Of a stretch of 64,000 nucleotides of DNA, positions 1,117 through 63,816 are shown one piece after another. Below the pieces are notes generated by a model. That model was not told the DNA's origin, made no database searches, and saw only the letters and a list, made by a program, of their open reading frames with translations. Origin of the DNA: Dasania phycosphaerae (GTDB lineage: Bacteria; Pseudomonadota; Gammaproteobacteria; Pseudomonadales; Dasaniaceae). Where the stretch lies: positions 157,497-221,496 of the forward strand of contig NZ_JAPTGG010000008.1 of the NCBI RefSeq assembly GCF_026891035.1, written 5' to 3'. Within the stretch, counting starts at the first letter, position 1, and each line of letters begins with the position of its first letter. Both the position numbers and the translations under genes were made by a program.

Positions 1117-1696
1117 TGCCTGTTGCTAGCCGCTCAGGACTATTAATATTAAGAAATTGACCTCGCAAATCCGACAAGTCTGCTGCTTGCGCCCTATGTT
1201 GTTGCTGCCAATCCCGTACTCGCCGATTTCCCTGTTGCAAATAACGATTTAAGTTAGTGGCTACCGAGGTTTTTAGCAGGCAAAATAGATATTGGTCCCG
1301 TTCTCCATCATTAACATAGCTAATGTCACCATCGCTACTAAGTAAGCTATGGGTCAATCTGGCGACTAAATCAGGGGGTAATATAGGACTGTCACAGGGG
1401 CAAATAAGGCAGTAGTCAGTTTTAATATGGGGCAGGCAGCTGGCTATACCGGCTAAGGGGCCTTGAAAGTCGGTAAGCTGATCGCGAATACAGGGGTAAC
1501 CATACTGCTGATACTGTTCCAAGTTGCGATTACAGCTAATAACTATATCACTCACTTGCGGGCCTATTTGTGCAATGACATGACTAATCAGGGGCTGATC
1601 TTGCCACTGTACCAAGCCTTTATCACGGTATTGAAAACGGCGACCTTGGCCACCCGCTAAAATAATTGCACTAATATTATTGCGATCAATTTTCAT
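1100..1696 (-). CDS. mobA: Molybdenum cofactor guanylyltransferase MobA
   Basis: 198 aa; N-terminus ISAIILAGGQGRRF matches the MobA nucleotide-binding signature; size typical. Confidence 0.85.
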   Translation of the reverse strand: MKIDRNNISAIILAGGQGRRFQYRDKGLVQWQDQPLISHVIAQIGPQVSDIVISCNRNLEQYQQYGYPCIRDQLTDFQGPLAGIASCLPHIKTDYCLICPCDSPILPPDLVARLTHSLLSSDGDISYVNDGERDQYLFCLLKTSVATNLNRYLQQGNRRVRDWQQQHRAQAADLSDLRGQFLNINSPERLATGNKKPQ

Positions 1697-5368: not shown

Positions 5369-5686
5369 GTGCAAATTGCTAACTCAACTATTAGCCCGCA
5401 AATACCCAGCGTTAGCGATAATGCTCAGCGCTCATTGCGCGATGCACCGCAGCAGCGGCCTAACTCCGATACCGTGCCCCCCACGGTAACTGAGTTTGAT
5501 AGCGAGGAGCTGCTGCAAAAACGCCTAGAGTTAAGCCGCGCCATTGCCGCCAGCCGTAGTGCCAATGAGATTGATCAACGTTTACCCCGCAGTAGCCAGC
5601 AGGCTATTAGAGCCTTTGAAAGCAATAAGCCCACCGTAGAGCAGCAATTGGGTGTGCAGCTAATTGGCATAGATACCTACGCCTAA
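5369..5686 (+). CDS. Hypothetical protein (105 aa, polar/Q-rich, no recognisable domain)
   Basis: ORF only; GTG start; weak resemblance to FlgM-size proteins, not convincing. Confidence 0.35.
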
Positions 5687-5732
5687 GCGCTATGCCGCAG
5701 TCACTATTCTTCTTACTTTTTTTACCTGCCCA

Positions 5733-7049
5733 TTGGATGTCAGCATGCAAGAGCTAAACACGTTTAACCAAGACCTAATGGCGTTCCTGGCCGCTTCACC
5801 CACTCCTTTTCATGCGGTGTCTGAAATGGTCAGCCGTTTACAAGCCGCTGGCTATCAAGCCTTAAACGAGGCTGAGGCTTGGGATTTAACACCCCAAGGC
5901 CGCTATTACGTGGTGCGTAATGGCTCAGCTATTATTGCCTTTAGCAACTTAGGGGGCAGCCCGGTAGAAAATGGTTTTCGCATGGTGGGGGCACATACCG
6001 ACAGCCCTTGTTTGCGAGTAAAGCCCAACCCTGAGCTAAACCGTAATGGCTATTTTCAATTGGGCGTAGAGGTATACGGTGGGGCGCTATTAAATCCGTG
6101 GTTTGACCGGGATTTGTCACTGGCAGGGCGGGTTAGTTTCAAAACGAAAGCCGGTGATATTAAAAGCGCATTAATTAATTATGCCAAACCCATAGCCGTT
6201 ATCCCCAGCCTAGCGATTCATTTAGATAGAGAAGCTAACAATACCCGTAGTATAAACCCGCAAAAAGATATACCGCCTATAGTGATGCAGGCCGAAAACG
6301 ATCAACAAGATTTTCGCGCCATGTTATTAGCGCAGTTAAAAAAACAGCAGCCTAATAGCGATGCGGCAAAAATTTTAGATTATGAACTCAGTTTTTACGA
6401 TACCCAGCCACCCGCTATTATCGGTTTAGAGCAGGACTTTTTAGCCAGCGCTCGCTTGGATAATTTATTGTCTTGCTATATAGGTTTGCAGGCACTGCTA
6501 AGCAATCACGATCAAAATGCCCTATTGGTGTGCAATGACCACGAGGAAGTGGGTAGTGCCTCTAGCTGTGGTGCCGATGGCCCCATGCTTAAGTCGGTAT
6601 TAGAGCGCATAGTGCCCGATGCCGAACAGCTAACCCGGGCCTTGGATCGCTCTATGATGGTGTCGGCGGATAATGCCCACGGTATACACCCCAACTACGC
6701 CGACAGGCACGATGCCAATCACGGCCCACAACTAAACCGTGGCCCGGTGATTAAAATTAATCACAACCAGCGCTACGCGACCAACTCGGAAACCTCAGCC
6801 CTAATACGTCATTTAGCTGAGCAAATAGAGGTGCCCATACAAAGTTTTGTGGTGCGCACTGATATGGCTTGTGGCAGCACCATAGGTCCTATTACCGCCA
6901 GTGGCCTAGGGGTTAAAACCTTGGATATAGGCGTGCCCACTTTTGCTATGCATTCCATACGCGAACTGGCGGGCATCAATGACGGCCATTATTTATACCA
7001 ACTATTGGCTGCCTTTTATCAGCAGCACAGTGTTGCCATCGCTAATTAA
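5733..7049 (+). CDS. apeB: M18 family aminopeptidase (probable aspartyl aminopeptidase ApeB)
   Basis: 438 aa; [13 protein letters not shown] and later His/Asp metal-ligand blocks typical of M18 aminopeptidases. Confidence 0.85.
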
Positions 7050-59857: not shown

Positions 59858-60816
59858 TGGCTGTTATAGACCTTAACGCTTTGGCTGAGGGCAACCGCCG
59901 TGCCCTCGCTAAAGCCATCACCCTGGTAGAAAGCAAACTAGACAGCCACCGCGAGCAAGCCCAGCACATGCTAGAGCAGTTGCTGCCCAAAACTGGCAAT
60001 AGCATACGCATAGGCATTACCGGCATACCCGGGGTGGGCAAATCTACCTTTATAGAAACCTTTGGCCTGTACTTAATTGCCCAGGGCAAAAAGGTCGCGG
60101 TGTTAGCGGTAGACCCCAGCTCGCCCTTAGAGGGCGGCTCCATATTGGGCGACAAAACCCGCATGGAAATGCTCAGCCGCGAAAGCAATGCCTTTATACG
60201 CCCTTCACCCAGTGAGGGCGCTTTAGGCGGGGTGGCACAAAAAACCCGCGAAACCATGTTGCTATGTGAAGCCGCAGGCTACGACGTAATTTTGGTAGAA
60301 ACCGTAGGGGTAGGCCAAAGCGAATACGAAGTGGCTGGCATGGTCGATTTTTTTATGGTGCTAATGCTGCCTAACGCGGGTGATGAGCTACAGGGCATCA
60401 AAAAAGGCATTATGGAATTAGCCGATGCCTTGGTGATTAACAAAGCCGATGGTGACTCTATTAACCTGGCCCAGCAAACCTGCCGCCATTATAAAAATGC
60501 GATGAACCTATTGCGCCATAACTCCTTTTGGACGCCACAGGTATTAAGTTGCTCGGCACAATTAAAGCAGGGCATAGATGCCGTGTGGGGCATGATTAGC
60601 AATTTTCATATAGACGCCACCAACAACGGCGCCTTTGCCAATAAGCGCACCCAGCAAAATAAAGAGTGGATGCAAAAACTGATCACCGAGCTGCTGGCCC
60701 GCAAACTCAACCAAAACCCACAGGTGCGCGAGCTTAAACCTCTGCTGGAGCAAAAGGTGATTAAGGGTGAAACCACGCCCTTGCTGGCCGCACAACGTTT
60801 AATTGAATTGCTGTGA
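59857..60816 (+). CDS. meaB: Methylmalonyl-CoA mutase-associated GTPase MeaB (ArgK)
   Basis: 319 aa; GITGIPGVGKST P-loop and NKAD motif; start overlaps mutase stop. Confidence 0.9.
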   Translation: MAVIDLNALAEGNRRALAKAITLVESKLDSHREQAQHMLEQLLPKTGNSIRIGITGIPGVGKSTFIETFGLYLIAQGKKVAVLAVDPSSPLEGGSILGDKTRMEMLSRESNAFIRPSPSEGALGGVAQKTRETMLLCEAAGYDVILVETVGVGQSEYEVAGMVDFFMVLMLPNAGDELQGIKKGIMELADALVINKADGDSINLAQQTCRHYKNAMNLLRHNSFWTPQVLSCSAQLKQGIDAVWGMISNFHIDATNNGAFANKRTQQNKEWMQKLITELLARKLNQNPQVRELKPLLEQKVIKGETTPLLAAQRLIELL

Positions 60817-61287
60817 GTGAGTATGAGTAATCATACTGTTACCGCCCGCTACCTTAGCGACTTTTTAAACCAGCACATGGAAATGGCCCAGCATATGGAC
60901 ATGAAAGTGCAACACTACAATGGTGATTGCCTAGCCCTGTCTATTGCCTTAAAACCTTCTCTTAATGATAAGCTCACCGCCTGGGGCGGCAGCCTGTATG
61001 GCCTTTGTGTGATGGCTGGCTGGGGCATGTATTACCTCAAATGCCGGGAGCAGGGCATCAACCCCAATATAGTCGTTAGCCATGGCGAGATAGATTACCT
61101 AGCCCCCGTGGCCGATGAGTTAATTGTGGCGCTATGCCATGGGCAGGCTATAGATTGGAGCAGTGTTTTTGCCCGTGTGCGCAGCCACGGCAAGGCTACG
61201 GTGGCGTTAACGGCTACGGTAAACAGCGCGGGTTCAACAGCGGTCACTTTTAAGGGCCGCTATACTTTGGTCGGCATAAAAAAATAA
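60817..61287 (+). CDS. Hotdog-fold thioesterase-like protein (DUF4442/YiiD_C-like)
   Basis: 156 aa immediately after meaB; pattern consistent with a thioesterase superfamily domain; GTG start (or ATG 60823). Confidence 0.55.
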   Translation: MSMSNHTVTARYLSDFLNQHMEMAQHMDMKVQHYNGDCLALSIALKPSLNDKLTAWGGSLYGLCVMAGWGMYYLKCREQGINPNIVVSHGEIDYLAPVADELIVALCHGQAIDWSSVFARVRSHGKATVALTATVNSAGSTAVTFKGRYTLVGIKK

Positions 61288-61612
61288 TCATCAGCCCGCC
61301 ACTGGCAAAATGATCAAAATAGGCTAGCGGTGCTACCCAATTGTACCTTTGGTAACGCCCACCAAGCTTTTCTGTGTGCTTGGGTTACGGCTCAAAATAG
61401 TAGCCCGTCAGTCGCCACTAACCCCAAGCTCAAGGTTTTATGCACATTTTGGCGTTTATGTGAAATATTCACATATACCGGGGCTTAAATTACTGTATAT
61501 GCATACAAAATAATGTAAGTGATTGATTTATAAGGCTTTAATTTGCTGGTTAAAAAATAAACAATCTGTCTTGGCGTTTGTTATATGGGGCCTATATGAA
61601 TTTTTTATGACC

Positions 61613-61647
61613 TTATCCACTAACTTATCCACAGATTTTGTGGATAA
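61613..61647. promoter_or_regulatory. DnaA-box cluster: TTATCCACT (61613-61621), TTATCCACA (61625-61633) and inverted TGTGGATAA (61639-61647)
   Basis: Two perfect consensus 9-mers in inverted orientation 5 bp apart plus a third one-mismatch box, in an AT-rich 460-bp intergenic region ~180 bp upstream of the dimeric dUTPase start; candidate -10 TATAAT at 61759-61764. Confidence 0.6.
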
Positions 61648-61824
61648 ATACGTACAAGCCCCATATAGCTGGTGCTTATTAAGGCAGGGTCAAGAATGAT
61701 ATTAAAAGTATAAATAAAGTGATCATAAATTGGCGCTTTTAAGCAGCTCTTGAGCCGGTATAATGCGCTACCCATGACAAAAATGTGTCAACAAATAGCG
61801 CAATGGCCTACACGAGGAACAAAC

Positions 61825-62454
61825 ATGAAGCAAGCGTTTATCACCATGCTCAACATGCAAAATAAAATGAATCAAAAAGTGCATGCAGATTGGCCCGCGC
61901 AAAACTTTGAATGGTACCGTGCCACTTGGATAGAGTGCGGTGAGCTAGTAGACCACTACGGCTATAAATGGTGGAAAGCACAAGCCCCCGACATGGACCA
62001 AGTAAAGTTAGAAGTCATCGATATTTGGCATTTTGGCATGAGTGCCTTATTTAAAGGCCAAGCTATAGAGGCCATAGCCGAGGCCATGGTTGCCGAGCTA
62101 GAGGGCTATCAATACCAAAACCAAGGTGTAATCGCAGCCACCGAAGCACTGGCACAAAACAGCTTAGCGACCAAAAGCTTTTCGGTAGCCTTATTTTGGG
62201 ATTTATTAAATGCCTGCGAAATGAGCTTTGACGAGCTATACCGCCAGTATGTAGGCAAAAACGTGCTCAACTTTTTTAGGCAGGATAACGGCTACAAAGA
62301 CGGCAGCTATGTAAAGCAGTGGCAGGGCCGTGAAGATAACGAGCACTTGGTAGAAATACTCAACGAGTTAGATGCCAGCGGCAACGGCTTTGCCGAGCAG
62401 GTCTACCAGGGCTTAAACCAGCGCTACCAAAACCTAGCCCTGGCGGCCACCTAG
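61825..62454 (+). CDS. Dimeric all-alpha dUTPase (dUTPase_2 family, Campylobacter/trypanosomatid type)
   Basis: ~209 aa from MKQAFITMLNMQNK (RBS gaggaa); WYRATWIECGELVDHYGYKWWKAQ...KLEVIDIWHFGMS aligns with the C. jejuni dimeric dUTPase motifs (WRRCIYMECAELIDSF.WKHWK...IEIVDIWHF). Confidence 0.75.
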   Translation: MKQAFITMLNMQNKMNQKVHADWPAQNFEWYRATWIECGELVDHYGYKWWKAQAPDMDQVKLEVIDIWHFGMSALFKGQAIEAIAEAMVAELEGYQYQNQGVIAATEALAQNSLATKSFSVALFWDLLNACEMSFDELYRQYVGKNVLNFFRQDNGYKDGSYVKQWQGREDNEHLVEILNELDASGNGFAEQVYQGLNQRYQNLALAAT

Positions 62455-62557
62455 CAGCTGCTAATAATTACTGCCCATAATAACTTTAACGGCTGTACTG
62501 ACTACCACCTTAATCGGCGGCTGGTGTCCAAAAACCCTGCCGCCACAGGCCACAGAT

Positions 62558-63433
62558 ATGACAGATACGGATCATCCACTCTCTACCAGCGCCTTAGCCA
62601 AGGCTTTGGCCATGTCATCACAGCAATTGTTTGGCAGCCTAAATGACTACGGCTGGATTAAGCGGGTAGACGATGCCTGGGAGCTAACCAGCAAAGGCGA
62701 GTTTGAGGGCGGCGAATATGTACATAGCAAAAAATATGGCCGCTATATCGTTTGGCCCCATAAAATTATCCAGCACCCACTATTACAGGCCATGGAAGAT
62801 AACCGCACCATTTCCGCCAAGGCCTTGGGCGAAAAACACCAGCTTAGCGCCCGCGAAGTTAACCGCGCCTTGGCCGAACTGGGCTGGATTAGGCCCAGCC
62901 CCCAAGGCTGGGAGCTAACCCGCATAGGCGAGAAAAAGGGTGGGCTGCAATTTGAAAACGAACAAAGCGGTACTTTTTATGTGCTGTGGCCGGAGCAGGT
63001 GCAAAGCGACCCACAACTACGGCAGCAGTTACATTATTTTGGCGAAGTAAACAGCGATAAACCCGCCCCCATAGGTGATGATTTATTTGCCAGCGCTAGT
63101 GATTACCCCGCATTGGATGGCCACAGCCACAAGAGCAAACCACTACTAAAAATTTGCCACTGGCTGTATACCGCAGGCTTTGCCCATGCCTGCAACCGAC
63201 GCCTGCCCTGCGAGCAAGAGCTATATGCCGATTTTTACCTGCCCAAGCACCACCTTTATATAGAGTACTGGGGGGCGGCACAAAGCGGCCATGCCCTAGC
63301 CGAAAAAATGCAACGCAAAAGCCAATACACCGCCCTAGGTTTAAAGGTGGTGGAATTAGAAACCAAAGACATCCCCCAACTTGATGCCGTGCTCACCAAA
63401 GCCCTGCGTAAACTGGGCGTAAGAGTGTATTAA
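62558..63433 (+). CDS. Hypothetical protein: two tandem winged-helix-like N-terminal repeats + C-terminal DUF559/Vsr-like (restriction-endonuclease-fold) domain
   Basis: 291 aa; internal repeat (LAKALAMSSQQLFGSLNDYGWIKRVDDAWELTSKGEFEGGEY vs ISAKALGEKHQLSAREVNRALAELGWIRPSPQGWELTRIGEKKGGLQ); C-terminal ADFYLPKHHLYIEYWGAAQSGH...RKSQYTALGLKVVEL resembles the DUF559 D..(V/I)E.DG..H...R...G(W/Y).V.R pattern. Confidence 0.55.
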   Translation: MTDTDHPLSTSALAKALAMSSQQLFGSLNDYGWIKRVDDAWELTSKGEFEGGEYVHSKKYGRYIVWPHKIIQHPLLQAMEDNRTISAKALGEKHQLSAREVNRALAELGWIRPSPQGWELTRIGEKKGGLQFENEQSGTFYVLWPEQVQSDPQLRQQLHYFGEVNSDKPAPIGDDLFASASDYPALDGHSHKSKPLLKICHWLYTAGFAHACNRRLPCEQELYADFYLPKHHLYIEYWGAAQSGHALAEKMQRKSQYTALGLKVVELETKDIPQLDAVLTKALRKLGVRVY

Positions 63434-63816
63434 TGCTAAGCAGAAAAACCACCATCATCGCCGCCATCGCTTTCTTCTGTGTTGTTGTTATCGCCACCGG
63501 CTATGTGCTGTGGCATATGAGCACACCGCGGCAATACCAGCTAGACATTAGCAACGAAACCGATCAAGCCATTACGCAAGTCACCGTGTTTGGCATGGGC
63601 GTTTTTCACGCCCAGTCCGCCAGCGATATAGCACCGGGTCAGTTTTCCTCTATCATCGTTAACCTCAAACCCGAGGGTGACTTACGCTTTTCGGTAGAGC
63701 AGGGCTATAACAGTATCGATTATTCGCTGGCGCAAGATGTGCAGCGGCTGGAGCAATTTAAGCAATGGCTAACGGTAGAGCCGGGCAATCGCTTTATTGT
63801 TAAGGATGTGGAATAG
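63433..63816 (+). CDS. Hypothetical membrane-anchored protein (127 aa)
   Basis: N-terminal TM helix (TIIAAIAFFCVVVIATGYVLW) then soluble domain; start overlaps previous stop. Confidence 0.45.
   Translation: MLSRKTTIIAAIAFFCVVVIATGYVLWHMSTPRQYQLDISNETDQAITQVTVFGMGVFHAQSASDIAPGQFSSIIVNLKPEGDLRFSVEQGYNSIDYSLAQDVQRLEQFKQWLTVEPGNRFIVKDVE

Follow-up and report, generated by a model that had tools for sequence, protein, structure and literature searches.

A 64-kb stretch of the Dasania phycosphaerae genome (contig NZ_JAPTGG010000008.1), referred to below as the window and the basis of all coordinates unless a locus is named, carries in a non-coding intergenic gap of 537 nt (61288-61824) a compact module of DnaA boxes and predicted binding sites for integration host factor (IHF) and Fis. 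By analogy with the DnaA-reactivating sequences (DARS) of Escherichia coli, the module is probably a chromosomal, non-coding DARS2-like element at which DnaA and IHF would drive nucleotide exchange on DnaA, a reading to which we give a probability of roughly 0.7; that it serves as a functional DnaA-IHF nucleoprotein site of some kind is much more probable still. Synteny with the E. coli sites is lacking, and the accessory layout differs from theirs. The same core geometry recurs at unrelated loci in distant Gammaproteobacteria of marine and wastewater origin, with near-perfect boxes and with that layout strictly conserved.

A three-box DnaA core in an AT-rich gap

Three DnaA boxes occupy positions 61613-61647, where the plus strand reads TTATCCACT-aac-TTATCCACA-gattt-TGTGGATAA. 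Read on the minus strand, the core is TTATCCACA-aaatc-TGTGGATAA-gtt-AGTGGATAA, which places boxes I, II and III in a 9-5-9-3-9 layout with the orientation →←←. An earlier, sequence-only reading of the window had reported an inverted pair of boxes with a third beside it, and direct reading of the sequence together with a 9-mer search confirms all three and their coordinates. Its aac spacer is also correct, but the 6-nt spacer 'gatttt' that it gave borrows the first T of the adjoining box, and the true spacer is 5 nt long (gattt).

Exact TTATCCACA 9-mers are found just twice in the window, both times in the core, where they form the inverted pair. The view that such a pair is unlikely by chance is borne out by the expectation calculated from base composition, which is about 2.5e-5 per 64 kb for an inverted exact pair within 0-20 nt. 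For exact boxes I and II accompanied by a box III with at most 1 mismatch, all at fixed spacers, the expectation is about 3e-10 per 64 kb, and for the same three-box arrangement it is 2.5e-8 per 5-Mb genome. We note separately that 9-mers within 1 mismatch of TTATCCACA are twice as frequent in the whole window as expected (27 observed; 13.2 ± 3.7 expected), a count reached in 0 of 100 shuffles, and that these are scattered along the window and not clustered.

The gap lies where the sequence-only reading had placed it, between a methylmalonyl-CoA operon and a gene for a dimeric (all-alpha) dUTPase. On the first side its neighbour is a YiiD_C thioesterase gene that ends a propionyl-CoA carboxylase/epimerase/methylmalonyl-CoA mutase/MeaB operon, and the dUTPase gene lies on the box I side. 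The AT-rich character reported for this region is likewise evident: the segment 61436-61750 has a GC content of 32%, compared with 48% for the window, and is the lowest among all segments of 315 nt. A scan of 60800-62600 against Rfam at E <= 1 showed no RNA family, and no tRNA is present near the site.

Conservation of the core and its accessory sites

The closest relatives of the dUTPase protein are found in marine Cellvibrionales (Oceanicoccus, Spongiibacteraceae, Porticoccus and HTCC2143). We therefore scanned dUTPase loci, taking one genome per species, and the 80 loci returned were scored by script for the 9-5-9-3-9 layout with no more than 3 mismatches over the 27 box positions. The core is present in 13 of the 80, and subsequently proved to be present in O. 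sagamiensis too; in all of these loci box I is directed toward the dUTPase gene. Altogether the core is kept at 15 Cellvibrionales loci from 14 other species, one locus having two copies, and dUTPase identity among them extends down to 58%. The Halieaceae, Zhongshania and most of the other scanned loci have no module within 6 kb of the dUTPase gene. A profile of the entire module, searched with nhmmer, matches the window at 61651-61436 (E = 1e-40) and reports 16 copies in Cellvibrionales DNA, the 15 others having E values from 1e-28 to 1e-45.

The core with 250 nt on either side was aligned for 14 species. Conserved blocks are confined to the boxes and to the box III side, and there is no conservation on the box I side, toward the dUTPase gene. 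Box I is invariant in all 14 species except for its first base in three of them, box II is kept in all 14 with one substitution in one species, and box III has 1-2 mismatches at a fixed 3-nt spacing throughout. The spacer base next to box II, a C on the minus strand, is also invariant in the 14 species, and is a C in both DARS1 and DARS2 of E. coli.

Three further sites recur on the box III side, and their offsets (+n) are counted from the outer end of box III. A Fis-like site begins 50-51 nt from box III in all 14 species, and its positions G1, Y4, R5, Y11, R12 and C15 are kept in every one, though the bases vary; the consensus used here, GNNYANNNNNTRNNC, is that of Kasho et al. The IHF-like site follows after a gap of 16-21 nt and is exact in 11 of the 14 species, with 1 mismatch in the remaining 3. 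A fourth DnaA box (box 4), which appears as TGTGCATAA in the alignment, is present in 14 of 14 species at 161-182 nt from box III, with variation confined to the degenerate N of TTWTNCACA. The intergenic DNA flanking these sites is otherwise unalignable among species that keep the sequence and spacing of the module. The spacing differences are not multiples of three and there is no Rfam match, which argues against a coding sequence or a known RNA element. Positions of these and the other features described below are collected in Table 1.

Table 1. Positions of the module, its component sites and associated features.
Feature	Position	Strand	Remarks
Whole module	61438-61647	-	order box I, box II, box III, Fis-like, IHF-like, box 4; ~210 bp
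DnaA box I	61639-61647	-	TTATCCACA on minus strand, TGTGGATAA on plus strand; head-to-head with box II, 5-nt spacer
DnaA box II	61625-61633	+	exact consensus TTATCCACA
DnaA box III	61613-61621	+	TTATCCACT, 1 mismatch; head-to-tail with box II, 3-nt spacer
Fis-consensus site, predicted	61548-61562	-	GTTTATTTTTTAACC, exact match to GNNYANNNNNTRNNC; +50
IHF-consensus site, predicted	61516-61528	-	AATCAATCACTTA, exact match to WATCAANNNNTTR; +84; preceded by an A/T tract
DnaA box 4	61438-61446	+	TTATGCACA, fits TTWTNCACA; +166; orientation as boxes II and III
LexA-like element, accessory	61493-61508		CTGTATATGCATACAA; between IHF-like site and box 4
21-nt block, lineage-specific	61403-61423		GGTTAGTGGCGACTGACGGGC on minus strand; beyond box 4; kept in the 7-8 closest species only
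Palindrome, 6-3-6	61459-61473		TGTGAAATATTCACA; two overlapping DnaA-box-like 9-mers, 1 mismatch on each strand
Dimeric (all-alpha) dUTPase gene	61825-62454	+	Pfam PF08761, E = 4e-30; ATG at 61825; box I side
Probable dUTPase -10 hexamer	61759-61764	+	TATAAT, read by eye; outside the module
Hybrid sensor kinase gene	L083 2921-5815	-	also in L005, L007 and L009
Small gene beyond box 4	L083 2176-2532; L008 5107-5421; L006 4451-4750	-	

Distribution beyond the Cellvibrionales

Metagenome contigs were scanned with the pattern TTATCCACA-N4-C-TGTGGATAA-N4-G-N-GGATAA. It specifies 26 bases, so that essentially no chance matches are expected, and the core was recovered at 120 loci or more (at least 120). 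Accessory motifs were counted around 86 non-redundant cores with enough flanking sequence among the matches listed, with the best window on the box I side serving as the control. The IHF consensus falls at +83-88 in 57 of the 86 cores (7 on the control side), the Fis consensus at +47-52 in 48 (8 on the control side), and a DnaA box oriented like boxes II and III at +150-191 in 61 (2 on the control side).

The gene contexts of these copies are varied. Among the matches listed, the nearest genes on the box I side are most often proS (17), citrate synthase/gltA (10), priA (5), those for extracytoplasmic function (ECF) sigma factors (5) and dUTPase (3), and on the box 4 side rdgB/Ham1 (19), peroxiredoxins (7) and guaA (4). 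The proS group represents Competibacteraceae, and the group with the order gltA-module-rdgB an abundant marine lineage. A dUTPase gene accompanies 5 of the 120 matches listed and the other 115 are not beside one; homologues of UvrB, BioD, MutH and RppH were not seen among these 120.

The environmental copies often adjoin genes of the nucleotide pool or of DNA maintenance (rdgB/Ham1 in 19 of 98 listed, priA in 5, and genes for an HhH-GPD glycosylase, SRAP and RadC). Much of this pattern may stem from a few abundant lineages and not from a general rule. A few of the environmental copies (L084-L203) lie near the plasmid-type genes KfrA, ParA and TrwB.

Comparison with DARS1, DARS2 and datA

The sequence-only reading had offered a DARS-like or a datA-like locus as alternatives to promoter control. 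The first of these suggestions is now strongly supported by the exact 9-5-9-3-9 layout and by the conserved IHF-like, Fis-like and additional DnaA-box sites. Read from the MG1655 genome, DARS1 is TTATCCACT-attcc-TGTGGATAA-cca-TGTGTATTA and DARS2 is TTATTCACC-ttttc-TGTGGATAG-agt-TGTGAAGAA; both cores have the geometry and orientations found in the window, including the C before box II. In the E. coli sites ADP release is determined by the head-to-head arrangement of boxes I and II with its 5-bp spacer, which is essential; box III points the same way as box II across a 3-bp spacer and stabilises the complex (Sugiyama et al., PMC6868365). As with the DARS core, the three-box geometry is found here in a non-coding location that is not an origin, and is conserved among related species.

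The resemblance to DARS2 extends beyond the core. The IHF sites, Fis sites and consensus DnaA box V of DARS2 have been described (PMC4245941, PMC11724364), and consensus mapping on MG1655 assigns them all to the box III side, with box V at +176, the essential Fis sites starting at +110 and IHF sites at +58 and +74. In the window, too, accessory sites are restricted to the box III side and include a Fis-consensus site. The IHF site has the same orientation as the second IHF-binding site (IBS2) of DARS2, at +84 compared with +74, and the further DnaA box stands at +166 where box V stands at +176. The sizes are also comparable, with a minimal DARS2 of 256 bp and a module here of about 210 bp. An IHF site as in DARS2 is thus present at the level of sequence.

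There are also clear differences between the two. The core boxes of DARS2 are weak whereas those in the window are consensus or near-consensus and presumably of high affinity, and there is a single IHF site here in place of the IBS1-2 pair. High-affinity boxes I and II, with an exact consensus box II, are instead a feature of DARS1, which shares the core geometry, requires its box III-side flank for full activity, and lies upstream of a DNA-maintenance gene. DARS1 differs in being about 101 bp long and in needing neither IHF nor Fis, and a consensus scan of the 150-nt flank on its box III side found no IHF, Fis or DnaA-box consensus. An engineered DARS2 that carries the high-affinity boxes I and II of DARS1 is still stimulated by IHF and Fis and over-initiates in E. 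coli (PMC11724364), and the natural module described here resembles that DARS1/DARS2 chimera.

Several observations weigh against assignment as a DARS2-like exchange element. The Fis-like site at +50 lies between the core and the IHF site, which is the position of the dispensable first Fis-binding site (FBS1) of DARS2, and the essential FBS2-3 sites at +110 have no counterpart in the module; the Fis consensus is moreover degenerate, with about 1 match expected per 256 nt per strand. Box 4 is inverted relative to box V, and the alignment shows no conserved low-affinity DnaA boxes beside it, unlike box V in DARS2. Synteny with DARS1 (bioD-uvrB) or DARS2 (rppH-mutH) is lacking at the window, in HTCC2143 and at the listed environmental loci, and the module is not orthologous by position to either. 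Nucleotide exchange and the binding of DnaA, IHF and Fis are what we infer by analogy, and we assume that the organism has fis, ihfA and ihfB; a tblastn search of the window and the collected loci with E. coli queries gave no match to any of the three.

In the later literature consulted, DARS-like sequences are described at the positions of uvrB and mutH in species close to E. coli (Enterobacterales, Vibrio cholerae and Shewanella denitrificans), and the DARS core is said to be confined to E. coli relatives and to two fixed loci. Those sequences were predicted on the same basis, a conserved core plus accessory sites; the present family is found instead in Cellvibrionales, Competibacteraceae and other uncultured lineages, and in many gene contexts.

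The other possibility raised, that the site acts in the opposite direction by inactivating DnaA through ATP hydrolysis with IHF, as datA does, or simply titrates it, and in either case lowers initiation potential, has some attractions. Like datA, the site is a non-coding cluster of boxes with one IHF site, essential in datA, between a lone box and the cluster, and four near-consensus boxes would titrate DnaA irrespective of any other activity; the sequence does not reveal in which direction the biochemical effect runs. Box geometry, however, is decisive against identity with datA. On the MG1655 map, box 2 of datA stands alone, 56 nt from the IHF-binding site, and boxes 3 and 4, the sole inverted pair, are 3 nt apart, so that the 5-nt head-to-head pair and the 9-5-9-3-9 layout are both missing; the glyV-X-Y tRNA-Gly operon that forms the context of datA is absent from the site. 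ATP hydrolysis requires head-to-tail oligomers of ATP-DnaA, whereas the strictly conserved element here is the head-to-head pair and its 5-nt spacer. Nor would titration by itself fix orientation, spacing and an IHF site across lineages. An inactivating or purely titrating role is accordingly improbable, and datA identity was rejected.

Relation to the dUTPase gene

The sequence-only reading favoured a DnaA operator, in which the boxes activate or repress transcription of the dUTPase gene and so link dUTP sanitation with initiation, in the manner of the DnaA boxes at nrdAB. Association with the gene is certainly frequent. The core lies about 130-460 nt upstream of the dUTPase ATG in the window and in the loci of ten relatives, and the module thus adjoins the gene, box I invariably toward it, in 11 of the 15 Cellvibrionales genomes. 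DARS1 of E. coli is likewise situated in the upstream region of uvrB, and rdgB/Ham1, another gene for a nucleotide-sanitising enzyme, adjoins the module in a different lineage.

The details fit an operator poorly. The core is 110-150 nt (centre ~130) upstream of the only good -10 hexamer, and its distance from the ATG ranges from 133 to 460 nt between species. Conservation extends for 200 nt on the far side of the core, whereas the stretch between core and gene is unconserved, and a simple operator would need neither an exact 9-5-9-3-9 layout nor an IHF site 84 nt away. In L005, L007, L009 and O. sagamiensis a 3-kb gene on the opposite strand (~960-1000 aa) stands between the module and the dUTPase gene; in O. 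sagamiensis it encodes a 7TMR-DISM hybrid sensor kinase with 7TMR-DISM, HisKA, HATPase and receiver domains. The module and the dUTPase gene are therefore separable, and because the kinase gene divides them in four species, DnaA control of dUTPase is probably not the conserved function. The module is also found without the gene: an Oceanicoccus metagenome-assembled genome (locus L003) has two complete copies, at 1399-1611 (+) and 5586-5802 (-), which are inverted and 4.3 kb apart and each consist of the core, a Fis-like site at +50, an IHF-like site at +86 and box 4 at +169. The second of these does not adjoin a dUTPase gene, and the same is true of the great majority of the metagenome matches listed, as described above.

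As a primary role, control of the dUTPase promoter is thus quite improbable, and the nrdAB analogy finds no support as a conserved function. Within the Cellvibrionales the dUTPase gene is probably a neighbour by synteny, and the module would not owe its conservation to acting on this gene; a secondary effect of the module on dUTPase transcription is possible.

The promoter itself is only partly recognisable. A ribosome-binding site, GAGGAA, is present at 61814-61819, but a consensus scan for promoters and terminators found no full -35/-10 pair for the dUTPase gene and was unproductive on the plus strand. The -10 hexamer belongs to a block shared with the closest relative, L146 (dUTPase 93% identical), after which the leader diverges and has a 29-nt indel. 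Downstream of the dUTPase gene are genes at 62558-63433 (291 aa) and 63433-63816 (127 aa), an order that is kept in relatives. Neither has an NCBIfam or Pfam assignment, and the 291-aa product has weak winged-helix/KilA-C-like matches.

Absence of origin features

An AT-rich segment with four DnaA boxes and an IHF site could also be a replication origin or its remnant, either a chromosomal oriC or the oriV of an integrated element, and the few environmental copies near KfrA, ParA and TrwB genes would suit the latter. GC skew, which the sequence-only reading had proposed as a check, is positive or flat across the window and its sign never changes, so that the local skew places no origin at the site. 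Genes and features of origins (dnaA, dnaN, rpmH, mnmG, rep or iterons) are missing from the window and from beside the ~100 environmental copies listed, and dnaA is absent from the collected loci too. One genome has two copies separated by 4.3 kb, and GATC is not enriched, with 2 sites in the 537-nt gap. An unwinding element would be expected to lie past box I, but no sequence is conserved there. Skew and gene context together exclude an origin as far as sequence can show, and we consider this explanation scarcely credible.

The skew permits a further observation on orientation. If positive skew marks the plus strand as leading, the replication fork would meet box 4 first and box I last; map position gives the same order at DARS2 of E. 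coli, a weak, 1-in-2 coincidence. Calculated from map positions, DARS2 stands at about 40% of the length of its replichore. In O. sagamiensis (CP019343.1) the module occupies about 3,573,727-3,573,943, at ~3.574 Mb of 4.472 Mb, where local GC skew is positive, a misfit with an origin at coordinate 0.

Other features of the module and its surroundings

Between the IHF-like site and box 4 is an accessory element, CTGTATATGCATACAA, resembling CTGT-N8-ACAG, which we take to be the gammaproteobacterial LexA (SOS) box, with one half-site mismatch. Conservation, in the form TTGTAT-N4-ATACAG, is limited to the window, L003, L005-L009 and O. sagamiensis, and the element could tie the module to the SOS response. 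The lineage-specific 21-nt block beyond box 4 reads AGTTAGTGGnCAATGACC in relatives and contains GTTAGTGG, a sequence also read across the spacer and box III of the core; the block may be a weak DnaA box, or another protein may bind there.

Two other repeats were considered as components and rejected. The 6-3-6 palindrome TGTGAAATATTCACA is present where it had been reported, but is kept only in the closest relative, L146, and in 0 of 13 more distant species, and is thus lineage-specific. A 10-nt inverted repeat, TATATGGGGC / GCCCCATATA at 61582-61591 and 61658-61667, flanks the three-box core; it is partly kept in the closest relative and absent elsewhere.

The gene beyond the other side of the module varies from species to species, and in HTCC2143 the neighbours of the module are glnS, dUTPase and trmA. 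Several relatives have a small gene (99-127 aa) on the far side of box 4, with its start 80-126 nt from that box and its transcription directed away from the module. Its product has a hydrophobic N-terminus, is 33-57% identical between species and matches no family in Pfam or NCBIfam. This small gene is missing from the window, L003 and L007, all of which keep the module.

A model for DnaA reactivation at the module

If the module acts as the E. coli sites do, DnaA would assemble on it, release its bound ADP and rebind ATP. By that analogy, ADP-DnaA would first occupy the consensus box II and then draw further protomers onto boxes I and III. Head-to-head dimerisation across boxes I and II, a contact for which E. 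coli DnaA needs Gln208 and Leu290, would distort the nucleotide pockets and bring about ADP release, while the head-to-tail contact through box III would stabilise the complex, and apo-DnaA would then depart and rebind ATP. The bend imposed by IHF some 84 nt away would fold DnaA bound at box 4, and possibly Fis at +50, back onto the core. At 84 and 69 nt, the arms on the two sides of the IHF site differ little in length, so that a U-turn by IHF would bring box 4 to the core. Such a fold-back could stimulate exchange or could provide a feedback that depends on occupancy, much as has been proposed for box V and IHF looping at DARS2.

Implications

DARS sites are among the few known mechanisms for recharging DnaA and have been characterised in E. 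coli only. The module accounts for an otherwise blank and unusually AT-rich gap of 537 nt in the annotation, gives a sharper consensus with which to find such elements in genomes, and offers a naturally occurring equivalent of the DARS2 that was engineered to carry a high-affinity core. Its presence in the cultured O. sagamiensis and HTCC2143 allows the generality of DARS-type control to be tested.

A broader proposal, which we regard as rather unlikely and put forward tentatively, is that these sites form a class of DnaA-IHF control module that is widespread, possibly ancestral and separate from DARS1, DARS2 and datA. Such a module would have a high-affinity head-to-head core, an inverted box 4 that stands almost symmetrically to the core about the IHF bend and could fold back onto it, and, in Oceanicoccus and Spongiibacteraceae, a LexA-like box. 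This proposal includes a bias toward neighbours of the nucleotide pool and DNA maintenance (dUTPase, rdgB and priA; uvrB and mutH in E. coli). If it is true, the LexA-like box would link DnaA recharging to the SOS response in the Oceanicoccus/Spongiibacteraceae lineage, DARS-type control would be general in many Gammaproteobacteria and not an enteric speciality, and the E. coli sites would be degenerate derivatives.

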